Below the pieces are notes generated by a model. That model searched no databases and had not been told where the DNA came from. It was given only the letters and a program-made list of their open reading frames with translations. A program made the translations under genes and the position numbers. Of a DNA stretch of 64,000 nt, positions 1 through 43,623 are shown piece by piece; position 1 is the stretch's first letter, and each line of letters opens with the position of its first letter. Source of the DNA: Escherichia phage RB69; sequence record NC_004928.1; one strand, given 5' to 3'.

Positions 1-119
1 GTAATTCTCCATTTACCTGTAGAAGTGCGGCTCGGTGGCTCAACTTGTTCAATCCAAATATAACCACCTTCAACGCGTTGGTTGGCGGATTCTGCAATAA
101 ATTCTTTATACGTTTTCAT
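1..119 (-). CDS. internal head protein-like, 3' end truncated by window edge
   Basis: ATG at 117-119 on minus strand; N-terminus MKTYKEFIAE matches the T4 IPI/IPII/IPIII capsid-targeting sequence; reading frame runs to the window edge. Confidence 0.6.
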   Translation of the reverse strand, partial: MKTYKEFIAESANQRVEGGYIWIEQVEPPSRTSTGKWRI

Positions 120-182
120 TTTTGTTTCCTTGTTTGTTTTGATAGAGTAATTATACCATATTAATACTTAAGCGTAAACCGT

Positions 183-443
183 TTAAGCTTGACCGCCAGA
201 AATAATTCCGAAGTTGTTAAAATCGTATCCAATATCGTCAACATCTACTTTAGGACTTACTACAACATAAGCAATTTCACTACGTTTTGCATAGGTGTTG
301 ATTTCTTTACCATCGCCACCTAAGAAAGAATACCCATTACGTTTTAATGAGCCAAAATCTTCCGCATCACCAATGAAAGCTTTAACTTTAAATTTAGGGT
401 CTTTGGCATCTGCTTCAATGATAAATTCTTGATACATTTTCAT
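183..443 (-). CDS. internal head protein-like small protein (capsid-targeting sequence variant)
   Basis: 86-aa ORF, N-terminus MKMYQEFIIEA resembles T4 capsid-targeting sequence; sits immediately downstream of denV as ipII/ipIII do in T4. Confidence 0.6.
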   Translation of the reverse strand: MKMYQEFIIEADAKDPKFKVKAFIGDAEDFGSLKRNGYSFLGGDGKEINTYAKRSEIAYVVVSPKVDVDDIGYDFNNFGIISGGQA

Positions 444-449
444 TTTTCC

Positions 450-863
450 TTAGTAAATTGATTTACCATAGTATTTGTACCAAGTCGGACGTTGAGCAAT
501 TTTTTCATCTAAGCGTGCTTGACTTATCGCAATGGACGCTTCGGACGGGACATAATTATTACGAAATTCGGCAGGGATGTCGGAAATATCCTGGACAGTC
601 GTGTCCTTGATTTTGAAACCACGTTTCAAGCATTCAGCGATTAGTTCGATTTGACGTAAACGTAAAAATTCGAGTTTGTCGTAAAAGAATGTTACGTGAC
701 CTGTGCCTAAGATAAATGTTGGAGAGATTTTAAAATCCTTTACACGTTTACCGTTTTGAACATGTTTACGGACTGCACCAAATACGCGTGGTAATTCACG
801 ATACTCAGCCATAAGATGTTGGTCGGTCAGTTCAGAAACAAGTGTTAAATTGATACGAGTCAT
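450..863 (-). CDS. denV: endonuclease V (pyrimidine-dimer DNA glycosylase)
   Basis: Protein [34 protein letters not shown]... is near-identical in my recollection to T4 DenV; start taken at internal ATG (863) not the track start 875. Confidence 0.93.
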
Positions 864-890
864 AATTTCCTCCAAGTAGTTGATGAATGT

Positions 891-920
891 ATAGTATCAA
901 AGTCCTTGGAGGAAGTAAAC
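891..920 (-). promoter_or_regulatory. sigma70-type early promoter (-35 GTTTAC, 18-nt spacer, -10 TACTAT) upstream of denV
   Basis: Minus strand reads GTTTAC(18 nt)TACTAT; T4 early promoter architecture. Confidence 0.6.
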
Positions 921-921
921 A

Positions 922-1203
922 CTATTTTTCTGAAGCGCCTGAAATATATTTTTCAAGACGTTGTTTCATTAGCGAGCCGTTCTTAGCGATTTCTTCCGGT
1001 TTATCGCACATACGCAACAAGGCTTCAAGCTTAACGATATCACTGGTGCGCTCAAATTTGCGAGTATCTATCTTGCTAGCAAGTTCAGAAATACGTGCTA
1101 ATAGACTTTCAGCTTCAACCAAAGCTGCACCTAGCTTCGTGGCAAATGTGTCAGTAGCTTCGTTAAGAGATAGATTCTGATAAAAATTCATGTATGTTTT
1201 CAT
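922..1203 (-). CDS. hypothetical protein with MKTY N-terminus (degenerate capsid-targeting-like)
   Basis: ORF track 922..1218; ATG at 1201-1203 overlaps the e stop codon (ATGA); product begins [11 protein letters not shown]. Confidence 0.5.
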
Positions 1204-1688
1204 ATATACGCTTTCCAAGTTCCTGTTTTAAATGTTGAGATTACGCGTTTCGCGCGATTAGGTGTCTGACGATACCATTTAGATTGGGCTAGATTTACTG
1301 CCGCTTCGTCCCAACGTTTCTGTTGAAGCATACGAAGAGAATTAGTAAAACCGGCGACGCCTGATACACCCATTTGGAAGACCATATTGACCAATGCACA
1401 CCGACGAACTGCATCTAAAGAATCATATACCGGTTTAAGTTTAGCATTACCCAAGATTCCGCGAACGGCTTTATCAACGTCTTCATTAAATAGCTTTTCA
1501 GCCTCATCAAGGGTAATTGTACCGTTGCATTTACGGCCGATCATTCTGTCAAGTTCAGCTTTAGCTACGGCTAAAGACGGGTTCTTTGTTACTAAATGGC
1601 CTATGCCAATCGTCCAAAAGCCTTCAGTGTCTTTGTATAAAGTCAGTCTAAGACCTTCGTCATTACGAAGCATTTCAAATATATTCAT
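1200..1688 (-). CDS. e: lysozyme (endolysin)
   Basis: [32 protein letters not shown]... matches T4 lysozyme over its whole length; GGAGG 5 nt upstream of ATG at 1688. Confidence 0.96.
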
Positions 1689-1722
1689 AATACCTCCCAC
1701 GTTTATAGGAGGTATTTATTAC

Positions 1723-2181
1723 TTATAGGAGGGTAGTGAGCACCTTATATAATGATTTGCCCATTACATATTCCCATTGAGAAGGTTTAATTAAAGCGAA
1801 TGCATCAAATTCAGGAATCTGTCGTCCGTCTGGGAATGTATGATAGGAATTACAAACACTGTTTCTGAATTGCTCGTGCTCTACAGGGATGGTATATAGG
1901 AACAGATGAATATTCTTATTGTCTGAGTAATGATGTTCACCTAGGTCTTTCAGGAAGGCAGGGTCATATTGTGTAAACCCAGTTTCTTCTTCGCATTCAC
2001 GAATAGCGGCTTCAATAGGAGATTCGCCAGGTTCGACACGGCCTTTAGGAATATCCCACCGATGAGCTAATGCACCTTTAGGACGAGAACCAGTTACACG
2101 CCCCATGAATAATTCTTTATCTTCGGTAAGGAAAATAATACCGGCTGATAGTTCTTTCACTTTATTTTTCTTACTCATCAT
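1723..2181 (-). CDS. nudE: NUDIX hydrolase
   Basis: Nudix box GRVEPGESPIEAAIRECEEETGF; position downstream of e as T4 e.1/nudE. Confidence 0.85.
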   Translation of the reverse strand: MMSKKNKVKELSAGIIFLTEDKELFMGRVTGSRPKGALAHRWDIPKGRVEPGESPIEAAIRECEEETGFTQYDPAFLKDLGEHHYSDNKNIHLFLYTIPVEHEQFRNSVCNSYHTFPDGRQIPEFDAFALIKPSQWEYVMGKSLYKVLTTLL

Positions 2182-2422
2182 CTCGGTCCCATGATTTGGC
2201 CATTAATTCGGACATAAATTCTTCAATGCGCGTTTCTTTAGATGGACTTTCACTATTAGAGACCGCAAGTTTGTAATCTGCAATAGGACGGAACAAATCA
2301 AGGTCCATATCAAGGTCGTCTTTGATTTGTTCTTCAGGTACATCTGTATCATACGTATACAGATAACTATCAAGTGATTCTGATTTAACGTAAATTGCTA
2401 TACTCATCTCAAATTCCTGCAT
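2171..2422 (-). CDS. hypothetical acidic protein
   Basis: 83-aa ORF; its start codon lies inside the ECR codons of the upstream gene. Confidence 0.5.
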   Translation of the reverse strand: MQEFEMSIAIYVKSESLDSYLYTYDTDVPEEQIKDDLDMDLDLFRPIADYKLAVSNSESPSKETRIEEFMSELMAKSWDRDDE

Positions 2423-39903: not shown

Positions 39904-41475
39904 ATGAAATTTAATATCTTAAGTTTGTTTGCTCCATGGGCAAAAATGGACGAACGTGATTACAAAGACCAAGAAAAAGAAAATTTAGAATCGATCACCT
40001 CACCAAAATTAGACGACGGCGCTAAAGAATACGAAGTATCTGAAAATGAAGCACAGCAAACATATAATGCTATGTTTCAGAGAATGTTCGGTAGCCAAGA
40101 ACCAGGGCTCAAATCAACGCGTGAATTAATCGATACGTATCGAAATTTGATGACGAACTATGAAGTGGATAATGCAGTCTCTGAAATAGTTTCCGATGCT
40201 ATCGTATATGAAGATGATACAGAAGTCGTTTCTATAAATTTAGACAACACAAAATTTAGTCCAAATATCAAATCAATGATGTTGGATGAATTTAACGAAG
40301 TGTTAAATCATTTATCTTTCCAACGTAAAGGTTCAGATCATTTTAGACGTTGGTATGTGGATTCTCGAATTTTCTTCCATAAAATTATTGACCCTAAACG
40401 CCCTAAAGAAGGTATTAAAGAGCTTCGTCGTTTAGACCCACGTCAAGTTCAATATGTCCGTGAAGTTATTACAACCACTGAAGCCGGTGTTAAAATAGTC
40501 AAGGGTTATAAAGAATATTTCATTTATGACACATCACACGAATCTTATGCTTGTGATGGTCGCATATATGAAGCTGGCACAAAAATAAAAATCCCTAAAG
40601 CCGCGATTGTTTATGCCCATTCTGGTTTAGTTGATTGTTGTGGTAAAAATATCATTGGTTATTTGCATCGGGCTATTAAGCCGGCGAACCAATTAAAACT
40701 TCTTGAAGATGCCGTCGTAATTTATCGTATTACTCGTGCTCCTGATCGTCGTGTATGGTATGTTGATACAGGTAATATGCCTTCAAGAAAAGCAGCAGAA
40801 CATATGCAACATGTTATGAATACGATGAAAAACCGTATTGCATATGATGCTACCACAGGCAAGATTAAAAACCAACAGCATATTATGTCGATGACCGAAG
40901 ATTATTGGTTACAACGACGTGATGGTAAAGCAGTAACAGAAGTTGATACATTACCAGGTGCAGATAATACTGGAAATATGGAAGATGTACGTTGGTTCCG
41001 TAATGCGCTTTATATGGCTTTACGTATTCCTATTACCCGTATTCCAAGTGACCAAGGTGGTATACAGTTTGATGCTGGTACTTCTATTACACGAGATGAA
41101 TTGTCATTTGGTAAATTTATTCGTGAGCTGCAACATAAATTTGAAGAGATATTCCTAGACCCGCTTAAAACTAATTTAATTCTTAAAGGAATTATTACAG
41201 AAGATGAGTGGAACGATGAAATAAATAATATTAAGATAAAATTTCATCGGGATAGTTATTTCTCGGAATTAAAGGATGCTGAGATTCTGGAGCGTCGAAT
41301 TAATATGCTTCAGATGGCCGAACCATTTATTGGTAAATATATTTCTCACAGAACAGCTATGAAAGATATTCTTCAGATGTCTGACGAGGAAATTGAACAA
41401 GAGGCTAAGCAAATTGAAGAAGAGTCGAAAGAGGCTCGTTTCCAAGACCCCGACCAAGAACAAGAGGATTTTTAA
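39904..41475 (+). CDS. 20: portal vertex protein gp20
   Basis: From ATG 39904: [26 protein letters not shown]... matches T4 gp20. Confidence 0.95.
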
Positions 41476-41711
41476 TGGACGATTTAATTCAAGCTATTAA
41501 ATCAAACGACCTCGTTGCTACTCGAAAGTTTTTTGAAAGTGCAATGGCAGAAAAAACGGTTCGTTTGATTGAAGCACGCAAAGCAGAAATCGCTTCTCAA
41601 TTTTTGATTGAAGGCGAAGAACCTGAAGAAGAAAAGAAAGCTAAAGCTTCGGAAGACGACGCTGATGAAGGCGATGACGACGAAGACGAAGATGATGAGG
41701 ACGATGAATAA
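41475..41711 (+). CDS. 67: prohead core protein gp67
   Basis: 78 aa with acidic C-terminal tail; synteny 20-67-68-21. Confidence 0.85.
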
Positions 41712-42136
41712 TGTATCTTATCCCTGAATCTTATGAATTGGTACTCGAAAATGTCGAAGCACTTATTCCTGAAGCACAGGGCCGAATCGATGCATTGTCT
41801 TCTGCTCTCGATATTGACGATATAAATACTATTATCGAGAACATGCTTGAAACTGAAACGGATTTAGCTGTTGCAATGGCTTCCATTATTAATGAAGAAC
41901 AGTTAAATGAGTTTATCGTTAAACATGTTTCTTCTCGTGGTGAAGTCACCCGCACTAAAGACCGTAAAACTCGTGAACGTAACGCGTTCCAAACAACCGG
42001 TCTTTCTAAAGCAAAACGTAGACAAATCGCTCGTAAGGTCGTTAAAGCTAAAAAAGCTAACCCTTCAGGCCAAGTTAAAGGCTTGCGTAAGCGTAAAAAG
42101 GCTCTTAAACGTCGTAAAGCATTAGGATTAAGCTAA
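41711..42136 (+). CDS. 68: prohead core protein gp68
   Basis: 141 aa, basic C-terminus; synteny. Confidence 0.85.
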
Positions 42137-42777
42137 TGAATAAACCCGAGTTACTTATTGAAACTTGGGGTCAACCCGGTGAGATTATTGATGGCGTTCC
42201 AATGTTGGAATCTCATGATGGAAAAGATTCTGGCTTAAAACCAGGGCTTTATATAGAAGGTATTTTTCTTCAGGCAGAGGTTGTTAACCGAAATAAACGT
42301 TTATATCCTAAACGCGTTTTGGAAAAAGCAGTAAGTGACTATATTAAAGAACAAGTCGCAACCAAACAAGCCCTTGGAGAATTAAACCATCCACCTCGCG
42401 CAAATGTTGACCCTATGCAAGCCGCTATCATTATTGAAGATATGTGGTGGAAAGGAAACGATGTATATGGACGCGCTAGAATTATTGAAGGCGACCATGG
42501 TCCCGGCGATAAATTAGCTGCTAATATACGAGCTGGTTGGATTCCAGGTGTTTCCTCTCGTGGTCTTGGTTCTTTAACCGACACCAATAAAGGGTACCGT
42601 ATCGTGAACGAAGGATTTAAATTAACCGTCGGCGTAGATGCCGTATGGGGACCTTCTGCTCCAGATGCTTGGGTTACTCCTAAACAAATATCAGAATCAG
42701 AAAATTCGGTGGAAATCACCAAAAACAGTGCTGACGAAGCATTTAAAGCTCTCGCAGAGAGTTTAAAAGCATTATAA
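42136..42777 (+). CDS. 21: prohead core protease gp21
   Basis: 213 aa; size and position as T4 gp21. Confidence 0.92.
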   Translation: MNKPELLIETWGQPGEIIDGVPMLESHDGKDSGLKPGLYIEGIFLQAEVVNRNKRLYPKRVLEKAVSDYIKEQVATKQALGELNHPPRANVDPMQAAIIIEDMWWKGNDVYGRARIIEGDHGPGDKLAANIRAGWIPGVSSRGLGSLTDTNKGYRIVNEGFKLTVGVDAVWGPSAPDAWVTPKQISESENSVEITKNSADEAFKALAESLKAL

Positions 42778-42779
42778 AT
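42772..42779 (+). promoter_or_regulatory. late promoter TATAAATA
   Basis: Exact TATAAATA overlapping gene 21 stop, upstream of gene 22. Confidence 0.7.
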
Positions 42780-42810
42780 AATAATGTAATCTAAACCACA
42801 GGACACTAAA

Positions 42811-43623
42811 ATGATCAAAAGAACAATTTTGAAAGAAGCTCAGAATATCGAGACTTCAGTTGCTCTTAATAGTGTTTTCGAATCAGTAGAACTGTCTCCG
42901 GACGTTAAAGCTAATTTCAGCACTGTATTCGAAGCCACCGTTAAGCAGGAAGCAGTCAAACTGGCTGAATCTCATATCAAAGCCATCGCCGAAAAAGCCG
43001 AAGAAGAAGTTGAAAAGGCTAAAGAAGATGCTGAAGAGAAAGCTGATAAAAAATTGGCTGAACAAGCTTCTAAATTCCTGGACCATCTTGCAAAAGAATG
43101 GCTCGCAGAAAACCAAATCGCAGTTGATAAAGGCATTAAAGCTGATTTGTTCGAATCCATGCTTGGTGGTCTGAAAGAACTGTTTGTTGAACATAACGTT
43201 GTTGTTCCAGAAGAATCTGTAGATGTTGTAGCAGAAATGGAAGAAGAGCTGGCCGAACATAAAGAAGAAACCGCTCGTTTGTTCGAAGAAGTTACCAAAC
43301 GTGATGCATATATCAATTACGTTCAGCGTGAAACCGCTATTAATGAAAGCGTGAAAGACCTGACTGAATCTCAGAAAGAAAAAGTTATTGGCCTGGTTGA
43401 AGGTATGGATTATTCTGACGCATTTGGTACTAAGTTAACTGCTATTGTAGAAATGGTTAAAGGTTCTACTAAAGAAGAAGCCGCTATTACCGAAAGTATA
43501 AATACAGTTGACAATGACGCTGCCGGTCTTAATTTTGTTGCCGAAGCAGTTGACACTACCACAACTCAGGTAGAACAGAATTCTAATGTAAGTTTATATG
43601 CGAAAGTCGCATCTCGTTTCTAA
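42811..43623 (+). CDS. 22: prohead scaffold protein gp22
   Basis: 270 aa, highly charged helical; synteny. Confidence 0.9.
   Translation: MIKRTILKEAQNIETSVALNSVFESVELSPDVKANFSTVFEATVKQEAVKLAESHIKAIAEKAEEEVEKAKEDAEEKADKKLAEQASKFLDHLAKEWLAENQIAVDKGIKADLFESMLGGLKELFVEHNVVVPEESVDVVAEMEEELAEHKEETARLFEEVTKRDAYINYVQRETAINESVKDLTESQKEKVIGLVEGMDYSDAFGTKLTAIVEMVKGSTKEEAAITESINTVDNDAAGLNFVAEAVDTTTTQVEQNSNVSLYAKVASRF

Follow-up and report, generated by a model that had tools for sequence, protein, structure and literature searches.

Three open reading frames that flank the endonuclease gene denV in Escherichia phage RB69, a T4-like phage of the genus Mosigvirus, are confirmed by sequence comparison as genuine T4-type capsid-targeted internal-protein genes. 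By homology, ORF-A is placed in the Ip10 family, ORF-B in an unnamed internal-head-protein family of T4-like phages and ORF-C in the Ip5 family. We consider it likely, with good confidence, that all three are cargo genes of the RB69 internal-protein system, the products of which would be packaged in the head, cleaved and co-injected with the DNA as anti-defence proteins.

These genes belong to an already described feature and do not represent a new type of element. ORF-B and ORF-C, which are both complete, are identical to RB69ORF125c and RB69ORF127c, respectively, and both carry the name "internal head protein" in RefSeq (NP_861815 being the exact match of ORF-B). An earlier sequence-only reading of the same DNA had proposed the three ORFs as new candidates for injected anti-defence effectors. 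By analogy with T4, such a function is indeed the leading hypothesis for genes of this kind, but the novelty was not borne out, ORF-B and ORF-C being named in RefSeq and the Ip5, Ip10 and VR20 homologues being named or annotated. The genes, the leaders, their variability and the anti-defence hypothesis all occur already in the literature and in the RefSeq annotation, and the variable repertoire of internal proteins has reportedly been described from Repoila et al. 1994 onwards.

Leaders, cleavage motifs and head machinery

The window, i.e., the whole stretch of 64,000 nucleotides that was analysed (record NC_004928.1), begins with the following features, in which ↓ marks a predicted cleavage:

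1..119, minus strand: ORF-A, first 39 codons of a gene cut by the window edge, MKTYKEFIAE↓SANQ...
90..119, minus strand: capsid-targeting leader of ORF-A, MKTYKEFIAE↓S
150..178, minus strand: sigma-70-like promoter upstream of ORF-A (TTTACG, 17 nt, TG-TATAAT)
183..443, minus strand: ORF-B (RB69ORF125c), 86 aa, MKMYQEFIIE↓ADAK
414..443, minus strand: leader of ORF-B, MKMYQEFIIE↓A
450..863, minus strand: denV, endonuclease V, a pyrimidine-dimer glycosylase (Pfam PF03013, E = 3e-14; phrog_1183, E = 1.5e-62)
922..1203, minus strand: ORF-C (RB69ORF127c), 93 aa, Ip5 family, leader followed by ↓ATD
1159..1203, minus strand: leader of ORF-C, 15 residues, then ↓A
1200..1688, minus strand: gene e, T4-type lysozyme (Pfam PF00959)

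The six-frame translation of the window was searched with the leader pattern MK[TM]Y..F, 200 shuffles serving as a control. Six matches occur, as compared to a shuffle mean of 0.02 and a maximum of 1, and each of the six opens an ORF of the minus strand. The T4-type leaders claimed by the sequence-only reading for the three ORFs at 1..119, 183..443 and 922..1203 were thus recovered, as were their positions around denV, all on the minus strand; the idea of a set of three genes holds for these ORFs themselves but not for the whole set, which comprises six leader-bearing ORFs in the window. ORF-A, ORF-B and ORF-C begin with MKTYKEF, MKMYQEF and MKTYMNF, respectively, in each case at the true ORF start and with the residues at the critical positions 4 and 7 in place; ORF-C keeps Tyr4 and Phe7 and has lost Glu6. 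In the leader, targeting is determined by residues 4 and 7, and processing by residues 8 and 10 (PMC9026906). An [LI]-x-E motif occurs at residue 10, 15 or 19 of all six leader ORFs. The leader ends of ORF-A, ORF-B and ORF-C were checked for an L-x-E site, and in all three an L/I-x-E closes the leader, predicting at the motif level gp21-type sites at IAE10↓S, IIE10↓A and LNE15↓A, respectively. Leaders of this type keep their amino-acid sequence even between distant families.

The other leader-bearing ORFs are distributed as follows:

9428..9990, minus strand: RB69ORF149c, with its leader-bearing ORF at 9550..9990, MKTYAEFLTE↓A
12449..12736, minus strand: IpI orthologue, 19-residue leader ending LTE↓A
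12783..13109, minus strand: RB69ORF156c, an Ip7-like internal protein, MKTYQEFIAE↓A, adjoining gene 57B

RB69ORF149c is split by a frameshift relative to a 187-aa Tequatrovirus protein, and RB69ORF156c shares 47% identity with ip7 of phage VR20. The IpI orthologue displays 94% identity to T4 IPI over an aligned mature region of 82 aa and is thereby homologous to a known GmrSD inhibitor (PMC6024577). In close relatives (APCEc01), a seventh leader ORF is located just past the window edge, next to ORF-A.

The cognate protease and scaffold of such leaders are encoded in the same window, where gp21, gp22, gp67 and gp23 were all identified:

41475..43623, plus strand: prohead core genes, the presumed target machinery of the leaders
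41475..41711, plus strand: gp67 (Pfam PF17634)
41711..42136, plus strand: gp68, by position only, without a Pfam match
42136..42777, plus strand: gp21 prohead protease (Pfam PF03420, E = 3e-107)
42811..43623, plus strand: gp22 scaffold (Pfam PF25623)
after gp22, plus strand: gp23, with a T4-type LTE↓AEIGGD site (Pfam PF07068)

Following the T4 model, the capsid-targeting sequence (MKTY-EF-, with Tyr4 and Phe7 as main determinants) would dock the precursor on the gp22/gp67/gp68 core during prohead assembly, and gp21 would cut after the Glu of the L/I-x-E motif, at residue 10 in ORF-A and ORF-B and at residue 15 (LNE) in ORF-C. The freed proteins, of about 8-11 kDa, would remain in the DNA-filled head, be ejected together with the DNA and behave in the cell as first-response counter-defence proteins. 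Packaging, cleavage, ejection and any anti-defence target of the three products are inferred; a search of the accessible literature found no virion proteomics, cleavage or ejection data for the internal proteins of RB69 or Mosigvirus.

Mature domains and family placement

ORF-A, which we take from its gene order to be RB69ORF124c, has a full-length homologue of 104 aa in the close relative APCEc01, identical at 38 of the 39 residues. The assignment to Ip10 was made through this homologue, residues 1-39 only being present in the window: the APCEc01 protein shares 72% identity with VR20 ip10 (E = 1e-57), and ORF-A is 72% identical to Ip10 of Shigella phage SP18. The Ip10 proteins of SP18, VR7 and VR20 also have the leader and the denV-proximal locus in common with the ORF-A homologue. 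The UniRef label "IpII" given to the Mosigvirus ORF-A cluster is a misnomer, devoid of any similarity to T4 IPII, and was probably suggested by position, given that phage NHEP29 has a true IPII orthologue in the ORF-A slot. Mature ORF-A is basic (pI 9.6, net +5), like T4 IPII and IPIII.

The predicted mature ORF-B consists of 76 aa (8.2 kDa) and is acidic, with a pI of 4.9. The ORF shares 72% identity with an annotated internal head protein of VR20, and hmmsearch with its profile recovered distant leader-bearing relatives. Two FG-GAP-like repeat proteins, P0098 and P0101, which also matched the profile, were treated as motif-level chance in repeat proteins.

The predicted mature ORF-C, of 78 aa and 8.6 kDa, is nearly neutral. 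Its mature domain is homologous to named Ip5 proteins: ORF-C shares 87% identity with VR20 ip5 along its entire length (E = 9e-58) and 46% with RB14 Ip5 by BLASTP (E = 1e-22), tblastn giving 54% over residues 7-69 of the mature domain in the latter comparison. The GenBank note on RB14 already gives RB69ORF127c as a relative. The Ip5 proteins (T2, T6, RB14, PST ipV; VR20 ip5) have in common with ORF-C a 15-residue leader ending in x-x-E. Those of the relatives of ORF-C read MKTYNEFLTVTTLNE↓A, without Glu at position 10, and that of RB14 Ip5 ends in ...TKTTITE↓S; because the relatives of ORF-C are devoid of Glu10, the cleavage site of the family would be residue 15.

With respect to VR20, dN/dS amounts to 0.17 for ORF-B and 0.19 for ORF-C, and these low values indicate that both are real, constrained proteins under purifying selection.

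The sequence-only reading saw no resemblance between the mature domains, and BLASTP with the first 10 residues removed agrees, no pair reaching E < 0.1. In the same type of comparison, none of the mature domains of ORF-A, ORF-B and ORF-C matched T4 IPII or IPIII at E < 0.2. BLASTP likewise revealed no homology of the three ORFs to T4 IPI, IPII or IPIII, and hence no homology to a GmrSD inhibitor. The T4 proteins belong to PHROG families (phrog_7857 for IPII, phrog_5341 for IPIII) that both differ from those of the three ORFs. Searches of Pfam, NCBIfam, PADLOC and PDB sequences with the mature domains returned nothing significant. Two groupings proposed by PHROG were also examined. That of ORF-B with RB69ORF156c was rejected, leader-stripped hhalign giving a probability of 0.1% and BLASTP nothing; because neither method supports this homology, phrog_2667 looks like a composite cluster joined by the common leader. 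For the grouping of ORF-A, assigned to phrog_3966, with the APCEc01_181 protein, BLASTP found nothing, and phrog_3966 is probably composite as well.

The structure prediction suggested for the mature domains was of limited help, the models of ORF-B and ORF-C being too weak for use and the fold searches empty. The AlphaFold2 model of ORF-B (mean pLDDT 53) was left out of the fold search. That of ORF-C (mean pLDDT 68) is all-helical, with helices at residues 14-44, 53-65 and 69-91, and at this pLDDT Foldseek found no match to it in BFVD or PDB.

Compared to the T4 internal proteins, the RB69 ORFs possess the same type of leader (MKTYQEFIAE↓A in IPII and IPIII) and the same L/I-x-E motif, and the gp21, gp22, gp67 and gp68 machinery is common to both phages (RB69 gp68 by position). 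The predicted mature products of RB69 are similar in size, with 8-11 kDa against 8-20 kDa in T4, but no similarity of their domains to IPI, IPII or IPIII could be detected.

Cassette exchange at the denV locus

More than 30 variable internal proteins have been described from two loci of T4-like phages (PMC2839356). The gene order, compared with those of T4, APCEc01, VR20 and RB14, places the RB69 genes in the variable internal-protein loci (vs.8-denV-e or tRNA-ipI-57B). The position is shared with T4, whose locus reads denV, ipII, ipIII, e; however, the RB69 cassettes occur on both sides of denV, which represents a conserved landmark between ORF-B and ORF-C, and amount to four at the locus (the fourth by homology with APCEc01) instead of two in T4. 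In VR20, the order is e, ip5, denV, ip10, internal head protein, ip7, vs.8, so that ip5 lies between e and denV, as ORF-C does, whereas the Tequatrovirus Ip5 is located in the other locus, beside ipI and 57B.

Among close relatives, these cassettes are freely exchanged, lost or eroded. In NHEP29, where the T4-IPII orthologue replaces ORF-A, homology to RB69 stops exactly after leader codon 10. In phage Mizar, homology sets in at window position 413, the base directly adjoining the ORF-B leader, and the cargo domain that follows is a different one.

Basic T4 internal proteins were first thought to neutralise or organise the packed DNA or to help the core, and the RB69 products could likewise be packaged structural proteins devoid of any host target, belonging to the scaffolding core or neutralising and organising the packed DNA. 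We regard this as rather improbable. The basic character of mature ORF-A, shared with T4 IPII and IPIII, would suit such a role, as would the accumulation of polyheads in T4 IPIII-minus and triple-IP mutants (PMC9026906) and the fact that no defence target was found for the Ip4-10 group; but mature ORF-B is acidic and ORF-C nearly neutral, the free swapping, loss and erosion of the cassettes in close relatives misfit a structural need, and all three T4 internal proteins now have defence targets.

The promoter upstream of ORF-A is the best promoter-like site in 1..2300, with 10 of 12 matches and an extended -10. An imperfect, AT-rich hairpin surrounds it, and CTATCAAAACAA and a Shine-Dalgarno sequence come next; a similar cassette, in which a hairpin encloses the -10 box and precedes CTATCAAA, occurs upstream of IpI and RB69ORF156c. 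The promoter is of the early type, not the late type; on the minus strand of 1..2300, no canonical late promoter (TATAAATA) occurs, one-mismatch variants only being found. Early-promoter/stem-loop cassettes at internal-protein loci, analogues of PeSL, are said to have been described by Repoila (1994), Arbiol (2010) and Comeau (2014). The element of ORF-A fits the early-promoter and stem-loop elements known from these loci (PMC2839356). As in PeSL-like cassettes, the swaps are limited to the two internal-protein loci; the breakpoints mapped here, however, fall at the 3' end of the leader-coding sequence and not in the promoter element. Both the leader and the promoter/hairpin repeats may serve as recombination handles, and a change of repertoire would consist of the replacement of a whole cassette by recombination through the conserved leader and the upstream promoter/hairpin element.

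The Shine-Dalgarno sequence of ORF-B (AAGGA) overlaps the denV stop codon. The ATG of ORF-C overlaps the stop codon of gene e (ATGA), so that the two genes probably share a transcript and are coupled in translation.

Possible targets and the altered leader of ORF-C

As of 2025, every member of the T4 trio has a known target: Ip1, Ip2 and Ip3 inhibit one GmrSD variant each, a different one in every case, and in this respect the T4 proteins have established targets, unlike ORF-A, ORF-B and ORF-C (PMC12373910). IPIII is active in the cytoplasm without its leader. By analogy, the likeliest targets of the RB69 cargo would be particular GmrSD-family Type IV restriction enzymes that attack sugar-modified cytosines; RB69 DNA is arabinosylated, and both GmrSD and BrxU enzymes cut such DNA. 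For the relatives of Ip5 and Ip10, a GmrSD target may be wrong, because ip4-10 gave no reproducible inhibition when confronted with eight active GmrSD systems (Silas et al. 2025).

An injected counter-defence role with other targets is less probable but deserves serious weight; candidates would be systems directed at the incoming DNA or active at the moment of entry, among them other nucleases, activities of the RecBCD type and sensors of abortive infection. It would account for the lack of reproducible activity of ip4-10 on any active GmrSD class tested, and it agrees both with the IpI orthologue that RB69 already possesses against GmrSD and with the lack of sequence relationship between the cargo domains and their different charges. 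All internal proteins whose target has been identified (Ip1, Ip2, Ip3) nevertheless act on a GmrSD variant, the GmrSD family is very diverse with only 15 groups sampled, and the tests used glucosylated T-even phages instead of the arabinosylated RB69. We tentatively suggest, as a possibility rather than an expectation, that at least one of the Ip10-like, ORF125c-family and Ip5-like proteins disables a first-response defence beyond those of the T4 trio, either an arabinosyl-cytosine-tuned GmrSD/BrxU subtype or a non-Type IV system. If true, this would explain the negative results of ip4-10 with glucosylated T-even phages. To our knowledge, no phage counter-defence factors other than internal proteins are in place at the moment of DNA entry. 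The many other Ip families, including those of ORF-A, ORF-B and ORF-C, are devoid of known targets and are therefore reasonable candidates for anti-defence screens, especially those of RB69, which carries arabinose and not glucose on its DNA.

ORF-C deserves particular attention in view of its leader. With respect to other Mosigvirus phages, a 1-nt deletion and a 1-nt insertion, 21 nt apart, put codons 5-12 (about 1169..1190) in a shifted frame, a compensated frameshift that is unique to the RB69 copy of Ip5. Of the 15 leader residues, 8 are unlike those of all relatives, the variant was seen on a single contig, and no second, independent double-indel leader was found in 232 phage records or in IMG/VR. 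Because Glu6, Leu8 and Glu10 have been lost, the targeting efficiency of ORF-C is uncertain.

It could even be assumed that at least one product, especially that of ORF-C, goes unpackaged, the leader DNA serving as a recombination handle while the product acts in the producing cell or the gene decays. The 8 altered residues, brought about by two indels on a single contig, would fit this assumption, as would the frameshifted RB69ORF149c and the early-type promoter of ORF-A. We nevertheless consider it very improbable: the second indel brings ORF-C back into frame, suggesting that the protein downstream is under selection; Tyr4, Phe7 and the LNE15↓A site are still in place, dN/dS values stay at 0.17-0.19, and leaders are conserved as proteins even between distant families. 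Read as a packaged cargo gene, ORF-C offers a naturally scrambled leader which, next to its consensus counterpart MKTYSEFLSESILNE, retains only M1, K2, T3, Y4, F7 and the LNE15 site, plus L13, and would define a minimal capsid-targeting signal.

Leader-bearing genes of the window

The sequence-only reading recognized three genes with the T4-type capsid-targeting leader of internal proteins (IPs) around denV, and this is borne out and extended to six ORFs of the window. The motif MK[TM]Y..F matches six times in the six-frame translation, in all cases on the minus strand and at an ORF start, against a mean of 0.02 over 200 shuffles. The minus strand carries every gene in the first 15 kb, and the genes surrounding denV are transcribed in the order nudE, e, ORF-C, denV, ORF-B, ORF-A.

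Genes around denV and further leader-bearing ORFs
1200..1688, minus: e, lysozyme gene (Pfam PF00959)
922..1203, minus: ORF-C, its ATG overlapping the stop codon of e (ATGA)
450..863, minus: denV (Pfam PF03013)
183..443, minus: ORF-B, starting 6 nt past denV, Shine-Dalgarno AAGGA before the ATG
1..119, minus: ORF-A, truncated by the window edge
9550..9990, minus: further ORF with MK[TM]Y..F match
12449..12736, minus: further ORF with MK[TM]Y..F match
12783..13109, minus: further ORF with MK[TM]Y..F match

The leader starts read MKTYKEFIAE in ORF-A and MKMYQEFIIE in ORF-B, and the ORF-C leader comprises 15 residues; in T4, IPII and IPIII share MKTYQEFIAE whereas IPI has MKTFKEFTSTTTPVSTITE. The gp21 prohead protease is specific for [LI]-x-E, a motif that closes all six leaders at residue 10, 15 or 19. 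The gp21 gene belongs to the window (PF03420, E = 3e-107), along with gp22, gp67 and gp23, the last bearing the T4-type site LTE↓AEIGGD (the arrow marks the predicted gp21 cut). The capsid-targeting sequence and its determinants have been reviewed (PMC9026906).

Start codons vary among the records. An alternative start 4 codons further upstream (MEPKMKTY...) extends the IpI ORF (12449..12748, minus strand) to the 99-aa form annotated in the RB69 record; the ATG at 12736 is favoured as the genuine start by the leader consensus and the relatives. Several records set the ORF-B start at the third codon (MYQEF...), which misses the MK of the leader.

Family membership and known functions

Mosigvirus phages, APCEc01 among them, share 98% nucleotide identity with the window, and five window proteins match RB69 proteins exactly. 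Two of these are ORF-B (RB69ORF125c) and ORF-C (RB69ORF127c), which RefSeq lists as "internal head protein", an annotation also carried by the equivalent ORFs of several GenBank relatives; the three remaining leader-bearing ORFs are RB69ORF149c, RB69ORF156c and IpI. ORF-C is 87% identical to ip5 of phage VR20; against Ip5 of RB14, T6 and PST, identity ranges from 46% by BLASTP to 54% by tblastn, and the RB14 GenBank record already reads "similar to ... Ip5, RB69ORF127c". The family call for ORF-A rests on its full-length homologue from APCEc01 (38/39 residues equal in the window part), which shares 72% identity with Ip10 from SP18 and VR20. ORF-B is 72% identical to VR20 gp119, an unnamed internal head protein, and the VR20 locus has nearly the same layout as that of RB69: e, ip5, denV, ip10, gp119, ip7, vs.8. 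ORF-A, ORF-B and ORF-C belong to the T4-type internal protein class. The first interpretation was right as to class and likely role, but their presentation as new candidates fails, since relatives named internal head protein, Ip5 or Ip10 are already on record in RefSeq and GenBank.

A complete HMMER scan of 1.8 billion representatives yielded no more than a handful of remoter ORF-B relatives, and the leader is present in all assessable ones (MKTYNEFIAE, MKTFQEFINE, MKSFDQYIME, MQTFHEFLVE); one of them, VR7ORF154c, sits in the other IP locus. Two FG-GAP-like repeat proteins (P0098, P0101) also matched the ORF-B profile (186..443) through the motif GDA-DD-FG ... NGYSF, with scores summed over repeats, and were rejected as probable motif-level chance similarity.

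We infer the packaging, processing, ejection and targets of the ORF-A, ORF-B and ORF-C proteins. Infection of the wild E. coli strain ECOR17 by T4 depends on IPIII, which is functional without its leader (Srikant et al.). Ip1, Ip2 and Ip3 inhibit one GmrSD variant each, and ip4-10 gave no reproducible inhibition of further GmrSD variants (Silas et al. 2025, PMC12373910). In RB69 the cytosines are arabinosylated, and GmrSD and BrxU enzymes cleave its DNA; RB69 IpI is discussed in the same reports (PMC6024577, PMC13390438, PMC13326640).

Cargo domains and cassette exchange

The mature domains had been described as mutually unlike, which was confirmed: once the first 10 residues were taken off, no two of the seven Mosigvirus IPs and the three T4 IPs resembled each other, apart from IpI and T4 IPI (94%). 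PHROGs group ORF-B with RB69ORF156c (phrog_2667), a homology rejected by hhalign on leader-stripped alignments (probability 0.1%), so that this cluster looks like a shared-leader artefact. Similarly, phrog_3966 unites ORF-A with its upstream neighbour (APCEc01_181 protein), and their mature domains lack detectable similarity. The shared 10-residue leader apparently drives both clusterings, and annotation transfer through them is therefore unreliable; UniRef likewise misnames the ORF-A cluster as 'IpII'.

The predicted mature products comprise 94 aa (pI 9.6) for ORF-A, 76 aa (pI 4.9) for ORF-B and 78 aa (pI 8.1) for ORF-C. Nothing significant was found for the mature domains in Pfam, NCBIfam, PADLOC or PDB sequences. 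From shallow alignments, AlphaFold2 gave an unusable model for ORF-B (pLDDT 53) and a weak one of three long helices for ORF-C (pLDDT 68), for which Foldseek found nothing in BFVD and PDB. Between RB69 and VR20, the dN/dS of ORF-B (0.17) and ORF-C (0.19) is close to that of e (0.11), and both are therefore constrained proteins.

Megablast matches of many relatives end at window 90-97 or 413, where the ORF-A and ORF-B leaders end.

Leader-end breakpoints (homology between RB69 and close relatives stops precisely where the leader-coding sequence has its 3' end) and shared upstream cassettes
90..119 and 413..443 of the window; L005:1911-2110; L006:1702-2058: breakpoints
120..182, minus: upstream cassette, ORF-A
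12737..12796, minus: upstream cassette, IpI
13110..13169, minus: upstream cassette, RB69ORF156c

NHEP29 is nearly identical to RB69 through the intergenic region and the leader and loses homology directly past leader codon 10; its ORF-A slot is occupied by a T4-IPII orthologue. Mizar lacks ORF-A and ORF-B, and has the ORF-B leader fused to a cargo domain of the ORF123c type (presumed name, from gene order, of the RB69 gene just past the window edge). Eroded ORF-B alleles also occur. The upstream cassette consists of an AT-rich hairpin with a -10-like box, CTATCAAA(A/T)(A/C)AA, a Shine-Dalgarno sequence and the ATG. Over 30 IP variants in two small variable loci, with PeSL-like early-promoter and stem-loop elements, were reported by Arbiol et al. 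(PMC2839356; see also PMC4122927), and the RB69 cassettes and locus variation fit this description.

Frameshifts and expression signals

Compared with all relatives, the ORF-C leader (1159..1203, minus) has lost 1 nt past codon 4 and gained 1 nt at a point 21 nt further downstream; the two changes rewrite codons 5-12 from SEFLSESI to MNFYQNLS and keep Tyr4, Phe7 and LNE15↓A. The predicted cleavage site of the Ip5 family is residue 15, not 10, judging from relatives that read MKTYNEFLTVTTLNE↓A. This double indel is absent from 232 phage records and IMG/VR contigs, and the exact protein is recorded from one contig only. Either the 2003 sequence contains a patch of errors here, or the frameshift and its compensation are genuine and would then speak for selection maintaining the cargo reading frame. 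A frameshift also separates RB69ORF149c (9428..9990, minus; 146 aa, leader MKTYAEFLTE↓A) from its 187-aa leader-bearing counterpart in Tequatroviruses, e.g., RB14ORF136, whose last 61 residues continue in a different frame at 9428..9613; either the gene is a pseudogene or the sequence is in error at this point.

A separate sigma-70-like promoter with an extended -10 (TTTACG, 17 nt, TG-TATAAT) serves ORF-A. The ribosome-binding site of e lies inside a hairpin (TACCTCC, 9 nt, GGGAGGTA; 1689..1730, minus strand), an arrangement reminiscent of the known translational control of T4 lysozyme. Directly upstream of this hairpin occur the late-promoter-like boxes AATAAATA and TATAAGTA, with one mismatch each; a late transcript from them would include ORF-C. 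Only two tRNA genes (Arg-tct, Met-cat) occur at 10783..10941 (minus strand), where the matching region of T4 holds an eight-tRNA cluster.
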